From Candidatus Omnitrophota bacterium (GTDB lineage Bacteria; Omnitrophota; Gorgyraeia; Gygaellales; Profunditerraquicolaceae), in NCBI GenBank assembly GCA_041651115.1, contig JBAZJY010000001.1:5165-69164 (forward strand): a DNA stretch of 64,000 nucleotides, given 5' to 3'. The notes below the pieces were generated by a model. The model was not told the origin of the DNA. It made no database searches and saw nothing but the letters and a program-made list of their open reading frames with translations. Positions within the stretch are counted from its first letter, which is position 1; each line of letters begins with the position of its first letter. Of the stretch, positions 9,423-59,781 are shown piece after piece. A program made the translations under genes and the position numbers.

Positions 9423-10834
9423 ACCAGAAGCAGGCAGCAGCAAAAAAGGGCGCTTCAAAATCCCGCGACGCCGAATTATTGAAGCTGGAAGCGGAATATT
9501 GTTCCTGGGGCGATACCGTGCATTACGCGGAAAAGCTCAATATCTTTGACCGCTCTGAAGGCATATATCTTTACGACCGCGAAGGCACGCAGTTCCTTGA
9601 CCTGCAGATGTGGTATTCCGCGGCAAATTTCGGCTATAAGAATGAACGGCTCGATAATGCCCTGAAGAGGCAGATTGATAAGTTACCGCAGTTGGCCTGC
9701 CAGTACCTGCATGAAGAAAAGATCATGCTGGCAACCAAGCTCTCCCAGAGGGTCGGCAGGATTTTTGAAGAAAAGGGCAGGGTGCATTTTAATGTCGGCG
9801 GTTCGGCGGCAATAGAAGACTCCTTAAAGCTTGTGCGCAGCTATTCCGGCAGGAACCTGGTATTCGCGTTCATGGGCGGCTACCACGGCAGGACATTAGG
9901 CGCTTCGGCAATTACCTCCAGTTACAGGTACAGGGAAAAATTCGGGCATTTTGCCGACCGGGCCCTGTTCATACCGTATCCTTACTGTTTCCGCTGCCCC
10001 TATGAAAAAAAACGCGATTTCTGCGACTTGTATTGCCTGCGGCAATTCGAGCGGTTGTTTGAGACTGAATATCATTCGGTGCTGAATATCAAGACCGGCA
10101 AGTGTGAATTCGGGGCATTTTACATTGAACCTGTGCAGGGCACCGGCGGTTATATCGTGCCTCCCGTGGAATATTTTACCGGCCTGAAAGAGATCCTTGA
10201 GCGGTATAATATATTGCTTGTCGATGATGAAGTCCAGATGGGATTCTTTAGGACAGGGAAATTCTGGGCGATTGAACACTTTAACGTTGTCCCCGATGTC
10301 GTAGTTTTTGGTAAGGCGCTGACAAACGGCCTTAATCCGCTTTCCGGGATCTGGGCTAAAGAAAAATTGATCTCGCCGCAGGCATTTCCGCCCGGCTCAA
10401 CCCATTCAACCTTTTCTTCAAATACGCTGGGCACAGCGGTAGGCCTGGAAACGGTAAAATTGATCGAAGAGTCTAATTTCAGCGTTGATGTACCTAAAAA
10501 AGGCGAATATTTCATATCCCGGATGCGCAAGCTTACTAAAAAATATCCCCAGGTCGGCCATGTCGGCGGATTAGGCCTGGCAATACGCGTTGAAATTTGC
10601 CAGAAAGACGGCTTTACCCCGAACAAAGAATTGACTGACGCGATAACCAATATCGGCCTTTCCGGAAATTTAGACGTCGGAGATAAGAAGATGGGGCTTA
10701 TATTGGATGTCGGCGGCTATTATAAGAACGTCTTTACAATAGCTCCGTCGTTGTATATTACGGAAGAAGAAATTGACCTTGCGGTAGACCTTTTTGAGGA
10801 AGCGCTAAAAAAAGGCATTGCCAAGGTTTCTTAA
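9419..10834 (+). CDS. Class-III PLP-dependent aminotransferase; substrate unknown.
   Basis: ATGA start/stop overlap with the upstream gene. Class-III pattern YLYDREGTQFLDLQ...AANFGY, GGSAAIEDSLK, FYIEPVQGTGG, LLVDDEVQMGFFRTGKFWA, and FGKAL carrying the PLP Lys. Confidence 0.8.
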   Translation: MNQKQAAAKKGASKSRDAELLKLEAEYCSWGDTVHYAEKLNIFDRSEGIYLYDREGTQFLDLQMWYSAANFGYKNERLDNALKRQIDKLPQLACQYLHEEKIMLATKLSQRVGRIFEEKGRVHFNVGGSAAIEDSLKLVRSYSGRNLVFAFMGGYHGRTLGASAITSSYRYREKFGHFADRALFIPYPYCFRCPYEKKRDFCDLYCLRQFERLFETEYHSVLNIKTGKCEFGAFYIEPVQGTGGYIVPPVEYFTGLKEILERYNILLVDDEVQMGFFRTGKFWAIEHFNVVPDVVVFGKALTNGLNPLSGIWAKEKLISPQAFPPGSTHSTFSSNTLGTAVGLETVKLIEESNFSVDVPKKGEYFISRMRKLTKKYPQVGHVGGLGLAIRVEICQKDGFTPNKELTDAITNIGLSGNLDVGDKKMGLILDVGGYYKNVFTIAPSLYITEEEIDLAVDLFEEALKKGIAKVS

Positions 10835-11182: not shown

Positions 11183-11454
11183 TGGACTGGAAAATATTTT
11201 TTGCGACTTTCGGAGCGATATTTTTCGCTGAACTGGCGGATAAAACTCAACTCGTGGGTATCGGGATGTCTGCGAAGACAGGCAAGGCTGTTAATGTCTG
11301 GATGGGTTCAGTGGCAGCCTATATGGTGGTAACCGCTATTTCAGTCATTATCGGCTTAATTGCCGGTAGCTTCCTTAAGCCGGAATTGATCAAGATCTGC
11401 GGCGGAACGCTGTTTATCGTAATGGGCATCTTAATGCTCGCAGGTAAGCTTTAA
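11182..11454 (+). CDS. Single-repeat UPF0016 (Gdt1/TMEM165/MneA-like) cation transporter half-protein.
   Basis: 90 aa with 3 TM helices. ELADKTQL matches the family E-x-G-D-(K/R)-(T/S) motif with A in place of G. Confidence 0.45.
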   Translation: MDWKIFFATFGAIFFAELADKTQLVGIGMSAKTGKAVNVWMGSVAAYMVVTAISVIIGLIAGSFLKPELIKICGGTLFIVMGILMLAGKL

Positions 11455-11456
11455 TA

Positions 11457-11522
11457 AATAGGGACAGAGACTACTTTTTTACGAAAGATAACTAAGAAAA
11501 AGTAGTCTCTGTCCCTATTTAT
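11457..11522. terminator. Bidirectional rho-independent terminator between convergent genes.
   Basis: Near-perfect 24-bp inverted repeat aaatagggacagagactacttttt / aaaaagtagtctctgtccctattt with A/T runs on both sides. It overlaps the stop of the minus-strand gene. Confidence 0.85.
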
Positions 11523-14275
11523 TTTAGGATTATTTCAATGCGGTTTAAAGGTTTGTTGGCGAGCCGGAGAAAATCCCTGCGCCGGATCACATAGCGTCCG
11601 GCGTTCAATCCTGCTGCAATAGTTTTTCCGTTAAAGCGGATGTTTTGGATCAAATGCTTTCCGCAATCTTTTTTCCCACGGTTTATGAATATCGCTTCAA
11701 TCTTTCTCGCGCAAAAATTTGTGGTTATGCCGGCAATGCCCTTTGCGCTGAATTGCGCCCTAGCCAATTTCGGCTCGATCAATAAGTCTCCGTATTCTCC
11801 CCGCAACCCAAAGGCCTGCGTAACCATTGTCAGGATAAACCAGCTGGCTGATCCGGTAAGATAACTGTACATGCCTCTGCCCTGGCTGTTGAAATATTCC
11901 GGCAAGCAGGGATAGATCTTGCTCTGCCGGGAATTTACTGCCATACGGTATATTGAATCCATAACTACGTATGCTTCGTTACTAAAGCCTCTTTTATACA
12001 GCGCGTAAGCGAACATCACGCACATATGGTTAAAGAACGCGCCGTTCTCCTTCTCTCCGTAAGCAAAAGAAAACGCCCTGCCCAAAGCATACTGCTCATC
12101 TTTAAAATCCGTATTCAGGCGGAATCCGCCGAGCTGTTTATGCTGAAGGTATTTACGGCAGCTCTTGAATAACGTTTTAACCTGTCCTGCCGCGGCAATG
12201 CCGCTCATCACTGCAAAAACCTGCCCGGTCAAGGTCATGCGCAGTCGCCCGCCCGTCGTTCCTTCTACCCGGCGTTTGTTGTTATCGTAATAGCCGTTGA
12301 AAAATCCTTCTTTCAGCCATTCGGTTTTTCTGATGTGGCTGGAGATCCAATCCGCTTTTCTCTTTAAGTCGTTCACCAGCTTGTCTGCGGGGACATTGAT
12401 CAATTTTCCGCTGACTTCTGTTTTAACGGCGCTAAAATATTTTTCAAGGAGAGAAAGCTTTTGTTTAATACTGGAATAATCAATGGGCTTGCGGCTTGTT
12501 GAATCAAGCAGGATGGCGATTTCTTTAAGCAGGGGAATATTCTTCAGCCCCGTTTTTTCTATTATTTCGCATAAGCTGTTCAAGTTTTGCGCGTACATCG
12601 CGCTGAAGGCCACGCTTTCGCCGTTTTCGCTTGCCATATCCAGGCCGTCGTTCCAGTCCGCGCCTTCCAGCCTGATGTGGTTATGCGGCCCGACGTTAAA
12701 AAACTGTACGAGGTTTTGCGCAAGGATATGTTCAAGCACTGTGCCGGAATAAATTTTTCCGGATTTAGTTTTCAGCTGTTTGCCGTAGTTTTCCGACCAC
12801 GCGGGGTCTTTTTCCCTGCCGCGGCTAAGCTGGCAATCACGGAAATAAGCGATTTTTTCAAAAAGAACTTTCAGGTCCGATGTTTGGTGGACGTATAAAA
12901 GCGTGGTGATCAGCGGCCAAACGCCGTGGTCCATCCATACGCGGGGGATATTATTGCGGTCGGCAATAAATTCTCCGGGTTTTGCGCCGATGATCGTGGC
13001 ATTAGAGCCGTCAATCCTGACGCCCCGGAAATTATTGATTAAAAGCGGCCGCACTTCTTTGGGGTCATGCAAAATAAGAGAAAGGCAATCCTGCCATAAG
13101 TCCCGCCAGCCCCTGCCGCCTTTGCCGTAATCAAAATCCGGCAGGAAAGAGCAGCCGTATATCTTGCGTAGCGTCGGCTGCGTATTTACCCAGCGGAACC
13201 AGTTGTTAAAATCAGCGTCGGAAAAAGCAATTGAATTGCTGCTGCTGATCTTTTGCCAATAAGCCTTGGTTTTATTCAAGGCAGCAATAGCCTTTTGCTC
13301 TGAATTGAATTTTTTAAATATTGTAAGCGCGCTGTTTTTTCCTTCGGTTATGCCCATGACAATGATATAGGAGCAGGTTTGGCCGGGCTTGAGCAGTTTA
13401 GTTTTAAACCTTAGCCCTGCCATCGGCTCTTTGCCTTGCGGATTAAGGTTTTTATCCGGGAGGAGATTTTTAAATACGGCGGCCGGCGCTTCCAGGTCAG
13501 AGCCTTCTCCGCAGAATTCTTCTTGCGTGGGATAAATATATTGCGGCGCAAGAGACCTGTCTTCCGCGCCGAAGACAAAATAAGAAGCCGCATTCTTCTT
13601 ATGGCCAGATTCGTCAAACAGCAGGGTGGGGGTTACGATTACGCCATTCTTAGCGATCGCTACCCGGCTTAAGAGCGAAGTTACGTGGCGGTGGTCATGC
13701 AAGTTGGCAGCTGACCTGCCGTAAATAGGGACTGCCGCCGTCGGCGTAAAAGTGATTTTTTTAGAAGAGGTGTTCGTTATTTTAACGAGCATGATTTCAA
13801 CCGGCTCTGCGCCTGACGGCACAAAAGAAGTGATCTGCGCCCTTAGCCCGGTTTGTTTGTTTTCCCGGGTAACTGCCTGCCAGAGCAGGCCTGCTTCCAA
13901 TTGGAAGTTATCACGTTCTAATGCGGCATTATCTTTTGACACGCCGCCGGCTGACCAGACTTTTTCGGGGCTTATGTATATCCAGAAATTGCGGCTGGAC
14001 CTTAAATTGCCCAGCCTTGCGCGTGAAGCAGGTTCCAGCAGGAAAGAATTAAAATTGACTTTTATGTCTCCGTGCAGGTCAGGGGTGATGGATGACATGA
14101 ATGGCAGGCTGTTGCAGAGGGGAAAGTAGAGGGTATTGATATCGCGGGCGTTTTCCGAGATAAATGACCCGTCGTTATCGGTAAAATTCCAAAGCGGCTT
14201 ATCCATAGGCTCTAAATTTATCACAGCCGTCTGCCTTTTGCAAGCCTTTTTCACCCATTGCCCGAAACGCTGCAC
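11519..14275 (-). CDS. GH94-family (cellobiose/chitobiose phosphorylase-like) glycoside phosphorylase.
   Basis: 918 aa. The conserved catalytic-acid region GADWNDGLDM matches the GH94 DWND motif, and the N-terminal region resembles a GH94 N-terminal beta-sandwich. Confidence 0.55.
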   Translation of the reverse strand: MQRFGQWVKKACKRQTAVINLEPMDKPLWNFTDNDGSFISENARDINTLYFPLCNSLPFMSSITPDLHGDIKVNFNSFLLEPASRARLGNLRSSRNFWIYISPEKVWSAGGVSKDNAALERDNFQLEAGLLWQAVTRENKQTGLRAQITSFVPSGAEPVEIMLVKITNTSSKKITFTPTAAVPIYGRSAANLHDHRHVTSLLSRVAIAKNGVIVTPTLLFDESGHKKNAASYFVFGAEDRSLAPQYIYPTQEEFCGEGSDLEAPAAVFKNLLPDKNLNPQGKEPMAGLRFKTKLLKPGQTCSYIIVMGITEGKNSALTIFKKFNSEQKAIAALNKTKAYWQKISSSNSIAFSDADFNNWFRWVNTQPTLRKIYGCSFLPDFDYGKGGRGWRDLWQDCLSLILHDPKEVRPLLINNFRGVRIDGSNATIIGAKPGEFIADRNNIPRVWMDHGVWPLITTLLYVHQTSDLKVLFEKIAYFRDCQLSRGREKDPAWSENYGKQLKTKSGKIYSGTVLEHILAQNLVQFFNVGPHNHIRLEGADWNDGLDMASENGESVAFSAMYAQNLNSLCEIIEKTGLKNIPLLKEIAILLDSTSRKPIDYSSIKQKLSLLEKYFSAVKTEVSGKLINVPADKLVNDLKRKADWISSHIRKTEWLKEGFFNGYYDNNKRRVEGTTGGRLRMTLTGQVFAVMSGIAAAGQVKTLFKSCRKYLQHKQLGGFRLNTDFKDEQYALGRAFSFAYGEKENGAFFNHMCVMFAYALYKRGFSNEAYVVMDSIYRMAVNSRQSKIYPCLPEYFNSQGRGMYSYLTGSASWFILTMVTQAFGLRGEYGDLLIEPKLARAQFSAKGIAGITTNFCARKIEAIFINRGKKDCGKHLIQNIRFNGKTIAAGLNAGRYVIRRRDFLRLANKPLNRIEIILK

Positions 14276-14284
14276 TTGTTAATT

Positions 14285-14724
14285 GAACCTGCCGGCTCTT
14301 TTCGCGTCGTGTGCCGTTTCCTTACCGTAGGCGGAGGACGCCAAAGGTCTTTCGTGAGCTCGGCGGCTGCGGAACTCGCCCGTCGGCGCTTACGCGCCAG
14401 GACGGGCTCAAACATCCTCGCCGTCCGAACCTTTTCACGTTCGGATTCCCTCGCTCCCGAAAGCTGCTTTGGCTAAACGGCACAAACTCCGCTTAAAGAG
14501 CGTCAGGTTCATTTACGAGCGGAACGCTATGCTTATGCGAAGGGCTTTGTGAGCGCGCATTGCAAACTTTTGCCAATTTCACTTTTAGAGATAGGCCGGC
14601 AAGGGCTTACGGCGAGCGGAAGCCCTAATGTTACGAAAGTATGCTTGAGAGCGAGCCGTAAACCGTAGCCGACGGCAAGATGTTTGCAGCGCGCGAGCAA
14701 AGCCCTGAAGCATAAAGCATAGCG
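14285..14724. repeat. GC-rich structured intergenic repeat: module A (14285-14520) plus a long imperfect hairpin (14525-14724).
   Basis: 14285-14520 is about 75% identical to 59342-59590 (gaacctg..ttcttttcgc..gtgtgccgttt, tctttcg..cggcgg..gaactcgc, cggattccc..gctttggctaaacggc.caaac..cgct.aaaga..c..cag.ttcattta). 14525-14558 pairs with 14689-14724. Local GC exceeds 55%. Confidence 0.7.
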
Positions 14725-14822
14725 ATTCATTAAGTTGGTAAATGAAAAAATACGATTGCCTGGCGGGTTTCTGTGATATAATAATGCATTATTTCCTCAC
14801 GGTTGCTTCCGGTTAACTTATT

Positions 14823-22393: not shown

Positions 22394-22407
22394 TAATACA
22401 CTCATAT

Positions 22408-22500
22408 TCCGAAAAGGCAAACCTACTGAAAGGTAGGGACCCCGCCAGTTACAAGCGCGGTTGGTGGGTCCCTCGAAGCCCATAGTATAAGGTGGCTGGC
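22408..22500 (+). ncRNA. Candidate c-di-GMP-I (GEMM-like) riboswitch aptamer in the 5' leader of the HD-GYP gene.
   Basis: AAAGGCAAACC-UACU-GAAA-GGUAG-GGAC closely matches the GEMM-I 5' half (GGCAAACC, GAAA-capped P1 hairpin, GGGAC). A second hairpin follows, GGGACCCCGCC...GGUGGGUCCC. The conserved ACGCAAAGCC segment is absent. Confidence 0.4.
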
Positions 22501-22604
22501 TTTGAGGGAGCAAAGCTACGGATCTAAAGAAAAGAGGAAAATCTTTTGATCGCCGGGCTACCGAAGACAAATCTCTAGTTGATTGAACCGGACTTAACCG
22601 GATA

Positions 22605-22718: not shown

Positions 22719-24374
22719 GTGGTCGCAGGAAAAATCAACTCTCTGGACATCATCAAGGGCATAGGCGCGGGGCTCTGCCTCCTGGATAAGAACCTGCGCA
22801 TTGTTTGGGTCAATAAATGCCAGGCAGAATGGTTTGGCGAGCTTGATGATATCCGCGGCAAGCACTGCTATAAGTTATTTGAACACCGTAATCATCCCTG
22901 CCGGGGCTGCCCGGCCTTAAAGGTTTTTAAGGATGGAAAAGTGCATAAAGCCGTAAGGATCGGCAAAAAGATCGACGGGACCAGCCAACACGCGCAATTG
23001 ACTGTCAGCCCGATCAAAGATAACCGTAATCGCGTAGAATACGCGCTTGAGGTCATACAGGATATCAGCGAGCAGGTCGAACGGGAAAGAAAGAGCAACC
23101 GGATGACGCGTAAATTACAGCGCATCCAGCACCGCTTGTCCGGGGCAAACCGCAGGCTGCATAACAGCATCTTGCGCCTCAAGGAGATCACCAGGGACGA
23201 GCTGCAGCATAATCACCTCCTGCATAAAAAATACCTGCAGAGTAAAGACAGACTGGATACCGTAAAGAAAGAGCTGCAGGATATTTTTAAAGTTAACCGC
23301 ACGATTTCCGCTTCAGCCGACGCCGAAAAGACCTTTTCCATGATCACGCGTTCAATCTGCGAGCTGATGAATACGGATTGCTGCGTGCTGCGCATTATTG
23401 ATGAAGAAAAAAAAGCGCTGACCGCGGCTGCCAGTTACGGCATACACAACGGCCTCAAAAGAAATCTCTTGGACGTCAAACTCGGAGACGGGATAAGCGG
23501 CAGGGCGGCGTTGGCGCGCAAGCCCGTAGTGATCAATGACCTGGGCAGGAAATCCGGGGTAAAATATCGCGACAAGAACGCGCGCGCTAAATACCGGGAA
23601 TTGGCGCAAAGCTTAGGCTTGCAGTCAATGATTTCCGTGCCGGTGATCTTTGACGGAAAAATGCTCGGCGTGATCTCAACCTATTCGCGCCGGAACCGCT
23701 GTTTTGAAGATGACGAAGTCAGGGTTTTGAGCATCTTCGCTTCGCAGATCGCCATCGCCATGCATGAATCAAAGCATTTTGAAGAGATCCATCAGAATTA
23801 TTTCAATACCATACATGCGCTGGTGCGCGCCATTGAAGCGCGCGACCCTTATACGCGCGGCCACACCGAAAGGGTAACAAAATACGCGGTTGAATTCGGC
23901 CGCAGCCTTAAATTGCCGGAATCCCAGATCGAGATCCTGCGCTATGCCAGCGAAGTGCACGACGTGGGAAAGATCAGCATCCCGGATTTTATCCTGAACA
24001 AACCCGGTAAGCTTACTCCTTCGGAAAGGGCAATGATCGAGCTGCATCCGGTAAAGGGCGCGGAAATGCTTGAGCCGTTGGAATTCCTTAACCCGGCAAT
24101 ACCGATCGTGCGCCACCATCATGAGCGCTACGACGGCACCGGCTATCCGGATGGATTGGAAAAAGACGATATCCCGCTTTTATCGCGCATCCTTGCCTGC
24201 GCAGATTCTTTTGACGCGATGACTTCCGAACGCCCGTACCGCAGGAGAAAGCTCAATATTGAGCAGGCGATCATGGAAATCAAGAATAACTTCGGCTCGC
24301 AATTTGACCCACGCATTGCCCAGCGTTTTATCAGGACGCTGCGCGCTCACCCCGTTTTCAAAGCCCTTAATTAA
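22719..24374 (+). CDS. PAS/GAF-domain HD-GYP c-di-GMP phosphodiesterase.
   Basis: GTG start with AAGAGG RBS. Coiled coil, GAF-like region, HD domain (...HDVGKI...) and the HHERYDGTGYPDGL (HD-GYP) motif. Confidence 0.85.
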   Translation: MVAGKINSLDIIKGIGAGLCLLDKNLRIVWVNKCQAEWFGELDDIRGKHCYKLFEHRNHPCRGCPALKVFKDGKVHKAVRIGKKIDGTSQHAQLTVSPIKDNRNRVEYALEVIQDISEQVERERKSNRMTRKLQRIQHRLSGANRRLHNSILRLKEITRDELQHNHLLHKKYLQSKDRLDTVKKELQDIFKVNRTISASADAEKTFSMITRSICELMNTDCCVLRIIDEEKKALTAAASYGIHNGLKRNLLDVKLGDGISGRAALARKPVVINDLGRKSGVKYRDKNARAKYRELAQSLGLQSMISVPVIFDGKMLGVISTYSRRNRCFEDDEVRVLSIFASQIAIAMHESKHFEEIHQNYFNTIHALVRAIEARDPYTRGHTERVTKYAVEFGRSLKLPESQIEILRYASEVHDVGKISIPDFILNKPGKLTPSERAMIELHPVKGAEMLEPLEFLNPAIPIVRHHHERYDGTGYPDGLEKDDIPLLSRILACADSFDAMTSERPYRRRKLNIEQAIMEIKNNFGSQFDPRIAQRFIRTLRAHPVFKALN

Positions 24375-34285: not shown

Positions 34286-34378
34286 CTTAAAGATTTTGTT
34301 AGAAATCTTTAAGCAGGCGTGGGATTAATTCGGCCCAACAATACTTTGCCGAATTCGGCAAAGTATTGTGGTTTTAAT
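34286..34378. promoter_or_regulatory. Two consecutive inverted repeats between mlaF and mlaD.
   Basis: cttaaagatttt/aaaatctttaag hairpin at 34286-34313. A perfect 30-bp palindrome caatactttgccGAATTCggcaaagtattg at 34338-34367 is followed by gttttaattt and sits directly before the AAGGAGG RBS. Confidence 0.5.
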
Positions 34379-34394: not shown

Positions 34395-35000
34395 ATGCTC
34401 TTTGGCAAGACAAAACTTGAGTTTAAGGTAGGGATATTCGTATTCTGCGGCCTGGTGATCCTGACAGTGTTTGTTTTGTCTATTGGCGGGTTCAAGACTT
34501 GGGCTTCTGGATACCGCGTTAAATTCACTTTTAATTTTATTAACGGCGTTAAGCTGGGCGCTCCTGTGCGCTTTGCCGGGCTTGATGTAGGCCAGGTCAA
34601 AGACATAAAGCTTATTCCCATAAACGGGAAAAAGACGCAGGTAGAGGTGCTTGTCTGGGTAAAAAATGACGTGCGTATCCCGGTTGACTCAACTATCTGG
34701 GTCAATACCCTCGGCCTTTTGGGCGAGAAATACATTGAGATCATGCCCGGCAAGGAAGCCGAAAATATCCTGCCCGCAGGCGGCCTTATTATCGGAGAAG
34801 ATCCGCTTGCCATGCACGAAGTAGGCGAATTGGCAAAGAAGATCGCCGATGACATTGACGCGCTGATCGTCAAGATCAAGAGCGGGGAAGGCACGTTAGG
34901 AAAACTCTTTACCGATGACGCGCTTTATACGGAAGTAGAATCGCTGGTCCTTGATTTAAGGAAACATCCGTGGAAGCTCCTCTGGAAAACCAACGAATAG
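34395..35000 (+). CDS. mlaD: Mla substrate-binding MCE-domain protein.
   Basis: N-terminal TM anchor plus an MCE domain. Confidence 0.85.
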   Translation: MLFGKTKLEFKVGIFVFCGLVILTVFVLSIGGFKTWASGYRVKFTFNFINGVKLGAPVRFAGLDVGQVKDIKLIPINGKKTQVEVLVWVKNDVRIPVDSTIWVNTLGLLGEKYIEIMPGKEAENILPAGGLIIGEDPLAMHEVGELAKKIADDIDALIVKIKSGEGTLGKLFTDDALYTEVESLVLDLRKHPWKLLWKTNE

Positions 35001-41361: not shown

Positions 41362-41400
41362 GGCTTTGTAGGGACTGTCCCTAACGTTCTTTCATAATTT

Positions 41401-41545
41401 TGCGTCTGTCTTGTGTGGTTTCTCGCGGGGACGCTCGCTCCGCCCCTGCGAGGCGGAGCATCGCTCGTGAGTCGGCTTTCGCTCTGCCCTAACGTAAGTG
41501 AGGGCATCCTTGCCCGCTCAAGCCTCCTACGCCCCGCTCAAAACC
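41401..41545 (-). repeat. GC-rich structured intergenic repeat, module B (inverted copy of 59628-59766).
   Basis: The reverse complement aligns at about 85% with 59628-59766. It includes a GCTCCGCC-n7-GGCGGAGC hairpin that in the other copy reads GTCCCGCC-n7-GGCGGGAC (compensatory changes). Confidence 0.75.
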
Positions 41546-41650
41546 ACCACAAGCCTACCGCAAAATTGATAAACGTGCGCTTCGAACAAAAACCGTAAAT
41601 TTTAAATAATATGCGCTTCCGAAATTATTCGTAAACTTGTAGTTGAAATT

Positions 41651-42307: not shown

Positions 42308-42856
42308 ATGAAAAAGATTGCAGCGTTTTTATGCGTAGTTTTATTAGCAGGGACTGCGTTTGCGGCAGATTTTGTGCTGAAGAGTCCGCAGCTTCAGGAA
42401 GGCGGCCAGCTTGGCATGGAACAGGTATTTGCCGGTTATGGCTGCACCGGTGAGAATATCTCTCCCGCTTTATCGTGGGAAGGCGCGCCTGGCGAAACAA
42501 AAAGTTTTGCCGTTACAGTCTATGACCCGGATGCCCGCAAAGGAAACGGATGGTGGCATTGGGTGATCTTTAATATCCCGGCGGATGTTAACAGTCTCTT
42601 GCAGAATGCCGGTGATCTTGCTTCCGCTTTGGCGCCTAAAGGAAGCGCGCAGGTTAAAAGCGATTCCGGCAAGCCCGGCTATAGCGGAGCATGCCCGCCG
42701 GCAGGGGATAAGCCGCACCGTTATATATTTACCGTCTATGCTTTAGATGTTGAAAAAATGCCTATGGATGAAAATACTTCAGGAGCCGAAGCAGGCCCCA
42801 ATTTAGATCAGCACGCGATCGCAAGGGCAGCGATAACCGTAACTTATTCCAGATGA
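42308..42856 (+). CDS. YbhB/YbcL-family (PEBP/RKIP-like) periplasmic protein.
   Basis: Signal peptide; conserved YDPDAR...WHW...CPP...HRY motifs of the bacterial PEBP family. Confidence 0.8.
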   Translation: MKKIAAFLCVVLLAGTAFAADFVLKSPQLQEGGQLGMEQVFAGYGCTGENISPALSWEGAPGETKSFAVTVYDPDARKGNGWWHWVIFNIPADVNSLLQNAGDLASALAPKGSAQVKSDSGKPGYSGACPPAGDKPHRYIFTVYALDVEKMPMDENTSGAEAGPNLDQHAIARAAITVTYSR

Positions 42857-42888
42857 GAGTAAAATATATCGCGATAGCATTATTGGAC

Positions 42889-42999
42889 GGAATTGGGGAC
42901 GTCCCAAAAGCGGAATTGGGGACGTCCCAAAAGGGGACACCCTAGTTATATTTTAATAGGGTGGTACCTTAAAGGACGTCCCCAGTGACGTCCCCAGTG
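42889..42999. promoter_or_regulatory. Array of palindromic GGGGACGTCCCC motifs with a central CACCCT/AGGGTG inverted repeat.
   Basis: ggaattggggacgtcccaaaag appears twice in tandem (42889-42933). caccct-n14(AT-rich)-agggtg follows, then gacgtccccagt twice (42976-42999), immediately before the ATG at 43001. A half-site cggggacgt is also present at 42224-42233. Confidence 0.55.
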
Positions 43000-43000
43000 A

Positions 43001-43579
43001 ATGAAGCTTATGAAAAGATTAAGGTCGGTTTTATTTATCGCGGTGTTCGGGATTATCGGATTGTGGGCGCAGACTGCTTACGCAAGGGTCTCTTACATGC
43101 CCAGAATATCCAAAGCCGCCGCAGCGTATCCTAATGACAAGTTTGCCGTAGTCGGAAGCCGGATAATGTTTTATGGCGGTATTAGCATACTAGTTCTACT
43201 GTGCATAGGCTTGGCCGTGTTTGCCTATAAACTAATACCCAAAACAGAAAAAATCAGGACCTGTCCGGTAGAAGAATTTGTTCACGCCAGGCAGATAGCT
43301 ATTTATTTGCCGCGCAGCAATGATATTATCCTGAAACCGGGCTCTAAGTATTTTACTGAACTGATCAATAATTTTACCGGCGATAAAAAGGCAGCTTCCG
43401 ACGATGACAGGTACAGCGATAAGCTTTTTCTAAAAATAAAAAACAGGCGTTACGCAATTGAGGCATCTCTGGACGGCTGGAATTTTGAAGGAGAACTGCG
43501 GAATTCCCGCGTCTTAAGCAACCCTTTAGAGGTAAGAAAAATCATTGATTCCCTCAAAGAAGAGTATTTAAAGAAATAG
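43001..43579 (+). CDS. Hypothetical membrane-anchored protein.
   Basis: ORF with an N-terminal signal/anchor and a second TM helix; no recognisable domain. The ATG at 43010 is an alternative start. Confidence 0.6.
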   Translation: MKLMKRLRSVLFIAVFGIIGLWAQTAYARVSYMPRISKAAAAYPNDKFAVVGSRIMFYGGISILVLLCIGLAVFAYKLIPKTEKIRTCPVEEFVHARQIAIYLPRSNDIILKPGSKYFTELINNFTGDKKAASDDDRYSDKLFLKIKNRRYAIEASLDGWNFEGELRNSRVLSNPLEVRKIIDSLKEEYLKK

Positions 43580-59169: not shown

Positions 59170-59246
59170 GAGATTACTCCTTTTAAATATATTAGCGTTG
59201 ATCCCCGGCATCTACTTAAACAAAAAATTCTTGAATATGCCGAGGA

Positions 59247-59330
59247 TAATTCAATCAATAACGTAAGCTAAATAAAGTTATTGATTGAATTAGTATACTT
59301 GAAAATAGGCTATTGTCAAGATACAATAGA
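59247..59330. promoter_or_regulatory. Two palindromes in the rpmB / helicase divergent intergenic region.
   Basis: Perfect 15-bp inverted repeat aattcaatcaataac-n14-gttattgattgaatt (59247-59291). ctattgt-caagat-acaatag palindrome at 59311-59330. Confidence 0.45.
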
Positions 59331-59341
59331 GATAGGTTTAA

Positions 59342-59766
59342 ATGAACCTGTCAGTTCTTTTCGCTCAGTGTGCCGTTTGCCCTAAGATAAATAATGGGCC
59401 GCCAATGATCTTTCGCATTTCGGCGGCGGTGAACTCGCGCCTTTTGCTCTAGCAAAAGTCGCTCGGACATACACCGCCGTCCCGATATTGCCGCCTATTC
59501 AGGCGGCATCGGGATTCCCGAAAGTGCTCAAGCTCCATTGGCTAAACGGCCCAAACTTCGCTCAAAGAATCGACAGATTCATTTATAAGTTAATCGTTAT
59601 GATTTTGCGGCTAACTTGGCTTGCTTTGAGCGGCACGTAGGAGGCTTGAGCGGGCATGGTTGCCCTTACTTACGTTAGGGCAGAGCGAAAGCTGACTTCC
59701 GAGCGAAGTCCCGCCTCGCATGGGCGGGACGAGCGTTGCTGCGAGAAGCAAGGCAAGGCAGACGCA
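59342..59766 (+). repeat. Composite GC-rich structured repeat: module A (59342-59590, similar to 14285-14520) plus module B (59628-59766, similar to the reverse complement of 41401-41545).
   Basis: Direct alignments as described for the other copies. The ORF track reads through it (59656 start), but stop-free translation of a GC-rich repeat is not evidence of coding. Confidence 0.75.
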
Positions 59767-59781
59767 AAATCTCTACTAATA

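Follow-up and report, generated by a model that had tools for sequence, protein, structure and literature searches.

Large structured non-coding repeats, probably mobile and moved in trans, in intergenic spacers of an Omnitrophota genome

The DNA analysed here (the window) is a stretch of 64,000 nucleotides from a member of the Omnitrophota, an uncultured phylum. Nearly all of its genes lie on the plus strand. At one place a GH94 "cellobiose phosphorylase" gene on the minus strand is divergent from a plus-strand operon encoding a HAD hydrolase and a CHASE-PAS histidine kinase, and at another the L28 gene (minus) is divergent from a helicase gene (plus). The GH94/HAD spacer is 547 nt long when delimited by the longest ORFs, which is the length given in an earlier note on this DNA; gene calls from the ENA contig put it at 643 nt. 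Both spacers hold a unit of two parts, a repeat called module A (copies A1 and A2) and a long hairpin (H1 and H2); a further hairpin, H3, is placed between two unrelated plus-strand genes and is antisense to both (Table 1). By Pfam the neighbours of these elements are GH94, HAD, histidine kinase, RecJ, L28 and UvrD/PD-(D/E)XK helicase proteins, with no function in common. The 74 kb of the source genome contain two A and three H copies, no further ones being present in the 5.2 kb to the left and the 5.2 kb to the right of the window. The raised local GC content noticed earlier is real: A1 has 58% and H1 51% (about 55% together) as against 48% for the window, and the elements as a group have 50–60% where the rest of those spacers has 30–33%.

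Table 1. Coordinates of the repeat elements and of the adjoining promoter block (window positions unless another sequence is named; the strand of module A is its inferred preferred strand)
Feature	Position	Strand	Remarks
Module A, copy 1 (A1)	14279..14520	-	242 nt
Module A, copy 2 (A2)	59338..59590	-	253 nt
Hairpin H1	14521..14730	+	long imperfect hairpin with nested stems; z -8.4
Hairpin H2	59596..59776	+	82-85% identity to H3; covariation
H2 core element	59602-59770		runs ATTTTGCGG...GACGCAAAAT; stops about 14 nt short of the helicase ATG (59785)
Hairpin H3	41391..41572	-	solo H copy without module A; 221 bits with the H model
Hairpin H4	L013 21473-21656		GCA_043823435.1, another Omnitrophota genome; 72.7 bits, E about 5e-19
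Whole inserted block A1+H1	14284..14730	.	447 nt; TTAAT on the left, TAAGT on the right
Divergent promoter block	59293..59327		AGTATACTTGAAAATA-N5-TTGTCAAG-N-TACAAT; promoter scan; context, not part of the element

The recurrence of 14285-14520 at 59342-59590, which the earlier note had pointed out, was confirmed with slightly wider bounds, and in a MAFFT alignment A1 and A2 have a column identity of 78–79%. With BLAST just the two ends align, 41 nt on the 5' side (83%) and 56 nt on the 3' side (84%); in the interior, divergence is too high. The architecture of A1 is branched: internal loops interrupt its long closing stem, and it also has a three-way junction and a single side hairpin. Terminal inverted repeats are present, the ends of the module sitting inside a closing stem of approximately 45 bp; the outer 40 bp or so are its best-conserved part and form the inverted repeat TGAACCTG...CAGGTTCA. 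A TA occurs on each side of both copies.

A covariance model (R1) built from A2 alone, with its minimum free energy (MFE) structure, recovers A1 over its full length with 109.5 bits (E 7e-35); on A2, its own source, it scores 317 bits. Ninety A2 pairs could be followed into A1 in a structure-fitted alignment: 59 are identical, 15 are changed on both sides yet still paired, two are changed on one side, seven are broken and seven fall in gaps. The sub-hairpin said to be preserved by different sequence (UCCGAAC/GUUCGGA in one copy, UCCCGAU/AUCGGGA in the other) is thus one instance of a behaviour that is general across the pairs of module A. Against dinucleotide shuffles the folding z-scores are -6.5 (plus) and -6.8 (minus) for A1 and -9.2 and -9.8 on the two strands of A2. 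Conservation is higher in paired than in unpaired columns (74% vs 61%), and G-U pairs are almost lacking, with none among the 84 MFE pairs of A1 and two among the 90 of A2, whereas shuffled sequences have about 12%.

The very long nested hairpin that had been described at 14525-14724 corresponds to H1 (MFE -104.6 kcal/mol). Hairpins of this kind form a repeated family separate from module A and able to occur without it. H2 and H3, which are inverted relative to each other, share perfect 8-bp ends (ATTTTGCG/CGCAAAAT), and in a plain MAFFT alignment all 56 of their pairs are intact, eight of them through double changes, with none broken; partners slid by one to three columns as a control give zero to two double changes. 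A covariance model made from H2 and H3 detects a fourth member, H4, in GCA_043823435.1, the helicase of which is 77% identical to that of the window. With H4 placed by the covariance model in a three-sequence alignment, 20 of the 56 pairs are changed on both sides and 98% of cells pair, while none of 500 shuffles reaches 20 double changes and slid partners give one to four. U·G pairs are kept in three of three aligned H members. It should be noted that the covariation tests of A and H alike involve two to three sequences in alignments that are partly model-fitted.

H1 has no BLAST-level similarity to the other H copies and shares with them the outer stems, a 5'-GA/5'-GA internal loop and the pattern of motifs; the outer stems and this loop align to model R2. 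With the three-sequence model R3 and the filters off, H1 scores 17.2 bits (E 0.007 over the window) on the plus strand only and is the only full-size match among the weak R3 matches. It is probably a distant member of the H family.

The earlier description of the region as structured is borne out by the fact that both families covary and each favours one strand. GAGC(G) motifs number five in sense and none in antisense in H1 and in H2, with corresponding counts of 6/1 in H3 and 4/0 in H4; in A2 the count is 6/0, sense being the minus strand of the window, and in A1 it is nearly even (4/3). These motifs are located at symmetric 5'-GA/5'-GA internal loops beside GCG/CGC stems, and C(GAAA)G loops are also found on the preferred strand. 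In all six elements, with the proviso that the strand assignments of homologous copies depend on one another, the sense strand folds more stably, by 9–18 kcal/mol with RNA parameters and 5–11 with DNA parameters. The minus strand of A1 is the more stable by 9.1 (RNA) or 9.7 kcal/mol (DNA parameters) and that of A2 by 13 kcal/mol.

The preferred strand of module A is opposite to that of the hairpin, so that the unit is a head-to-head pair in both copies. The modules joined in this way are unlike but kindred: GAGCG-containing 8-mers common to A (minus) and H (sense) number 21 in the same sense and two in the opposite one, and the H model fails to align to module A as a whole, which places the kinship at the level of motifs only. 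The junctions between A and H are 5–12 nt long and have no conserved -10 or -35 elements. Folded with DNA parameters, the 452-nt A+H units form two separate domains (z -8.6 and -10.8).

Comparison of the sites of A1+H1, A2+H2 and H4 with relatives (about 80 kb of DNA from five of them) indicates that the elements at these sites are insertions, since relatives carry short intergenic spacers at the same places; these are empty sites between species, not between strains. The divergent GH94/HAD pair is kept in three relatives (GH94 72–74% identical) with spacers of 150, 135 and 15 nt, as against 547 nt. One of them, L006, has the empty site ccgTTAATTAAGTatt where the window has ttgTTAAT[447 nt, 14284-14730]TAAGTtgg. 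This block, delimited against the empty site, corrects the extent originally assigned to the element (14285-14724), and the hairpin is not unique to this site. The block may alternatively be read as TTAA, 14283-14729, TTAA. The bases that flank module A (TA) and A1+H1 (TTAA) also extend the palindrome, which makes TA or TTAA ambiguous as a target duplication; around module A the left and right TA/TTAA flanks pair, and so may be element sequence. Matching direct repeats were not found at the ends of H2, H3 and H4, nor was a clean target-site duplication.

The spacer between L28 and the helicase measures 228 (L012), 117 (L013) and 61 nt (L038) in relatives vs 615 nt in the window, and the promoter block is conserved in all three. 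A2+H2 is situated between this block and the helicase ATG, some 14 nt downstream of the plus-strand -10 element and hence within the predicted helicase mRNA leader, such that the helicase transcript would read H2 in sense and A2 in antisense. Copy 1, by comparison, appears to lie upstream of both divergent promoters, these being assigned from blocks conserved with L006. H4 fills a 183-nt gap between the co-directional genes for CinA and a LigT-like protein, in sense; in another relative (L012) this gap is 2 nt. Neither A nor H is present in the orthologous spacers of L006, L007, L012, L013 and L038 or in two gene maps without DNA, and 45 kb of two other relatives, together with small loci, yielded no copy of either.

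The L28/helicase spacer is variable in other ways as well. The closest relatives, L007 and the gene map of ERZ1426832 (helicase 84% identical), have RNase II (RNB) and HAD genes between L28 and the helicase which are missing in the window, L012, L013 and L038, so that gene content varies at this junction. At window positions 59193-59292 the L28 leader contains about 96 nt of extra sequence that L013 and L038 lack, with a perfect 16-bp AT-rich hairpin (59247-59262/59277-59292) in it; it represents another lineage-specific insertion into this spacer, unrelated to A2+H2. L012 has a different, hairpin-rich insertion of about 136 nt there (9825-10016; GGGGACAGCGACTA...TAGCTGTCCC and GGGGGTCAGAATTTAAATTCTGACCCC), flanked by a 28-bp direct repeat, ATTGTCAAGCCCTATGAATAAAGTTCTG, which duplicates the helicase start.

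An undescribed ncRNA family was one of the two options in the earlier note, and a search of Rfam gave no relevant family. At gathering level Rfam 15 returned for the whole window only a c-di-GMP-I riboswitch, located elsewhere, and at an E-value threshold the two units gave chance matches only. The 6S, SRP and RNase P RNAs, group II intron fragments, Y-RNA-like RNAs and omega or bridge RNAs were rejected on having no Rfam match, and these named classes are also without a partner gene nearby (reverse transcriptase, TnpB/IscB, IS110 recombinase, Rsr). No tRNA or tmRNA was found, and no ORF is common to the copies, which speaks against protein coding. A retron msr-msd was discounted for want of an adjacent reverse transcriptase, an integron attC site for want of an integrase and because the hairpin ends, judged by eye, misfit the R'/R'' boxes, and a single-stranded DNA plasmid origin for want of plasmid genes.

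Neither a transposase nor a HUH/Y1 gene appears in the gene lists and Pfam results for the 74 kb of source genome, and the elements have no reverse transcriptase, integrase, TnpB/IscB or recombinase gene near them. Scans found no promoter or terminator common to the copies, and BLAST against plasmid and phage collections produced no match. Exact-pattern scans for the conserved A blocks, which require 19–20 identical bases, gave three matches in GTDB genomes and one in JGI metagenomes, all ascribed to chance since only the pattern itself matched, and so no further module A; viral contigs scanned in this way gave none. A gapped H pattern matched 24 times in viral contigs, no H member being confirmed by the covariance model, and the single covariance-model match among these contigs (L030; 12.8 bits, E 0.21) is at chance level. 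No parent IS bearing these ends was found in the 74 kb, nor any paper describing repeats or non-coding elements in the literature on Omnitrophota. The elements are new as a family and outside every described family.

What these elements are can be answered with graded confidence. We think it probable, though by a measured rather than a strong conviction, that A and H are lineage-specific, non-coding, non-autonomous mobile repeats of the MITE or REPIN type which depend on their structure and are moved in trans. Of the two possibilities raised by the earlier note, a structured ncRNA family or a MITE-like element, the mobile element is upheld by the empty sites in relatives; the idea of a conserved ncRNA gene passed on vertically at these loci is not supported. 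Mobility is suggested by those empty sites, by the occurrence of elements singly and in pairs, in either orientation, and by their foreign base composition; fold dependence is suggested by covariation among copies at unrelated sites and by the constant loop motifs. The repeats would be mobilised by an enzyme encoded elsewhere in the genome. Its target would be one folded strand, most likely of DNA, rather than a terminal repeat in double-stranded form. Single-stranded DNA is favoured because few G-U pairs occur although G·A loops have been retained, because the paired columns of module A are the better conserved ones, and because the transcription context is inconsistent between copies. The H elements would also move alone, and they occur in at least one other genus. 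If the copies descend from lineages that kept the fold, this would explain why the stems covary whereas the sequences at the base of the stem, like the GAGC(G)/tandem G·A loops, are constant.

Several observations count against this reading: the want of a transposase or HUH/Y1 gene within 74 kb, the presence there of only two A and three H copies, the want of a clean target-site duplication, a size two to three times larger and a structure more branched than those of REPINs and typical bacterial MITEs, and the failure of the GTDB/JGI exact-pattern scans to reveal further module A copies. In addition, template-switch correction of quasipalindromes can yield covariation between arms without selection (PMC7202029); it leaves unexplained the conserved U·G pairs, the conserved asymmetric side hairpins and the motifs confined to one strand.

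Structure-dependent mobilisation in trans would follow the logic of REPIN/RAYT and IS200/IS605 systems (PMC3116915). REPINs and IS200/IS605 hairpin ends resemble A and H in being non-coding and intergenic, with a GC content above that of their spacers, and in having strand-specific features and no obvious target duplication. A REPIN has two related units in inverted arrangement, as A+H may have, and, like A+H, a fold predicted in single-stranded DNA or RNA; REPIN clusters arise by insertion beside existing copies (PMC3116915). The differences are in size (about 20–40 nt for a REP unit and 70–120 nt for a REPIN, as against branched modules of 170–253 nt), in the lack of a REP-like conserved head sequence and of a RAYT/Y1 gene in 74 kb, and in the relationship of the two halves, A and H sharing short motifs only and no full-length homology, unlike REPIN halves. 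BIME and BOX mosaic repeats likewise combine modular palindromic units in fixed relative orientation at one intergenic site, but the units of A+H are far larger and form no tandem arrays; the sequence comparison with these repeats consists of the Rfam and BLAST negatives.

Were these elements mobile repeats in this sense, they would represent an unusually large, branched, structure-constrained family persisting across genera and inserting into promoter-proximal spacers and mRNA leaders, with some 450 nt of very stable structure placed before a DNA-repair helicase gene. The REPIN/MITE idea would be extended to much larger folded units, and a concrete substrate would be at hand for seeking the mobilising enzyme. 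Such elements also break short-read assemblies and are mistakable for ncRNA genes in structure-based screens.

Alternatively, A and H may be structured ncRNAs or cis-acting RNA modules that act once transcribed together with adjacent genes, for example on mRNA stability, processing or the start of translation, their genomic spread being secondary; we hold this to be unlikely, yet credible enough to be weighed in full. The strong covariation suits it, and so does the occurrence on one strand of RNA-typical features: internal loops with tandem G·A, loops of the C(GAAA)G kind and U·G pairs that are conserved. Of the four H copies, two are sense-oriented within transcribed leaders or operon spacers and end just short of a start codon: A2+H2 is downstream of the conserved helicase promoter, so that H2 would be transcribed in sense, H4 is in sense between co-directional genes, and H2 and H4 end 14 and 2 nt, respectively, before real start codons. 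An RNA-level role of this kind is compatible with mobility, and for the ERIC and Correia repeats effects on mRNA stability and the carriage of promoters have been reported (PMC3184786). However, the elements are absent at orthologous sites in all relatives checked, copy 1 lies between divergent promoters with no plus-strand promoter before it, A2 would be antisense in the helicase transcript, the genes on both sides of H3 run antisense to it, the neighbouring genes have no common function, module A is nearly without G-U pairs and there is no Rfam match. Large Rfam ncRNA motifs resemble A and H in their 170–250 nt, multiple stems, covariation and GNRA-like loops; A and H differ from them in matching no family, in not being conserved at orthologous loci, in having neither a promoter or terminator of their own nor an associated gene class and, for module A, in the scarcity of G-U.

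More speculatively, and in our estimation improbably, A and H could make up a hitherto undescribed class of structured nucleic acids in Omnitrophota, large and self-propagating, in which the fold itself is the functional unit. One form would be RNA: a novel structured family, dispersed through genomes, with a cis effect on adjacent mRNAs (H2 and H4 stop just before start codons). The other would be an element moving by way of a folded single-stranded intermediate, served by a type of enzyme not yet linked to such large branched substrates.

Quite improbable, as we see it, is that the elements are classical cut-and-paste MITEs, in which a transposase (IS630- or IS5-like, with a TA or TTAA target) reads double-stranded terminal inverted repeats and the internal hairpins are kept solely by arm-to-arm DNA correction, the fold itself not being required. 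Whole-length palindromic MITEs possess terminal inverted repeats with TA at both ends, their transcripts fold into a long hairpin, and some share a transcript with genes (PMC3184786); ERIC/IRU, Correia/NEMIS, RUP and Nezha are, like A and H, small, non-coding, repeated and intergenic near promoters. The conserved outer 40 bp of module A, which form an inverted repeat, the perfect 8-bp ends of H2 and H3 and the almost purely Watson-Crick stems would all fit, and so would the TA that bounds both A copies, with copy 1 readable as TTAA/element/TTAA, since ERIC-type MITEs have TA flanks (PMC3184786). Recognition of double-stranded DNA would not, however, lead one to expect the asymmetry between strands in motifs and stability seen in all six elements, nor the U·G pairs and asymmetric side hairpins of H conserved across genera. 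ERIC, Correia, RUP and Nezha are simple hairpins of 100–170 bp with defined TA duplications and known IS relatives, whereas A+H is a 450-nt composite with stems that covary across genera and strand-specific G·A loop motifs. Neither a target-site duplication nor a parent IS with these ends is demonstrable for it: the ends of H2, H3 and H4 have no matching direct repeats, and the TA/TTAA flanks of module A pair mutually and may belong to the element.

That the similarity and folds are due to chance or to an assembly artefact has practically no probability left and is already refuted. Breaks within A2 and H1 do occur in Logan contigs assembled from short reads of the same organism; yet the ENA assembly ERZ27247363 (146-kb contig k141_400606), which is independent, is 100% identical over both units, a member exists in another genome, and the z-scores of -6.5 to -10.8 (0 of 100–200 shuffles fold as well), the covariance-model E-values for A1 and H4 and the double-changed pairs show the observation to be real.

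In the Logan contigs of SRR8542065, L009 ends at window position 59383, which is 46 nt into A2 and at the end of its conserved 5' block, and L004 starts at 14667, inside H1. These breaks fit repeats or hairpins that break the assembly graph, and hint at further copies or variants in the sample.

Past the 3' end of every H copy there is an ATG within 2–14 nt, which could be due to chance in AT-rich DNA or to a target preference. It is the real start codon for H2 (14 nt) and H4 (2 nt; L013 21474); after H1 it opens an ORF of 24 codons (14743-14817) and after H3 one of four codons (41566-41549, minus strand).

Some other features of the window deserve mention. The c-di-GMP-I riboswitch aptamer (RF01051; 39.7 bits vs a gathering score of 35) is at 22406-22565 on the plus strand, upstream of the gene at 22719-24374, and its first hairpin is enlarged by an insertion of some 80 nt. 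Between convergent genes, at 11453-11523, there is a perfect inverted repeat of 27 bp (AATAAATAGGGACAGAGACTACTTTTT); its theme, GGGAC(A/T)G...C(A/T)GTCCC, recurs before H3 (41366-41380) and in the L012 insertion, and may be that of a common terminator or small-hairpin family in these genomes. The perfect 32-bp palindrome ACAATACTTTGCCGAATTCGGCAAAGTATTGT at 34338-34369, just upstream of the gene at 34395-35000, is operator-like. Lastly, a cluster of inverted repeats containing GGACGTCCCC is found at 42885-42993, between small paralogous genes of unknown function (42308-42856 and 43001-43579).
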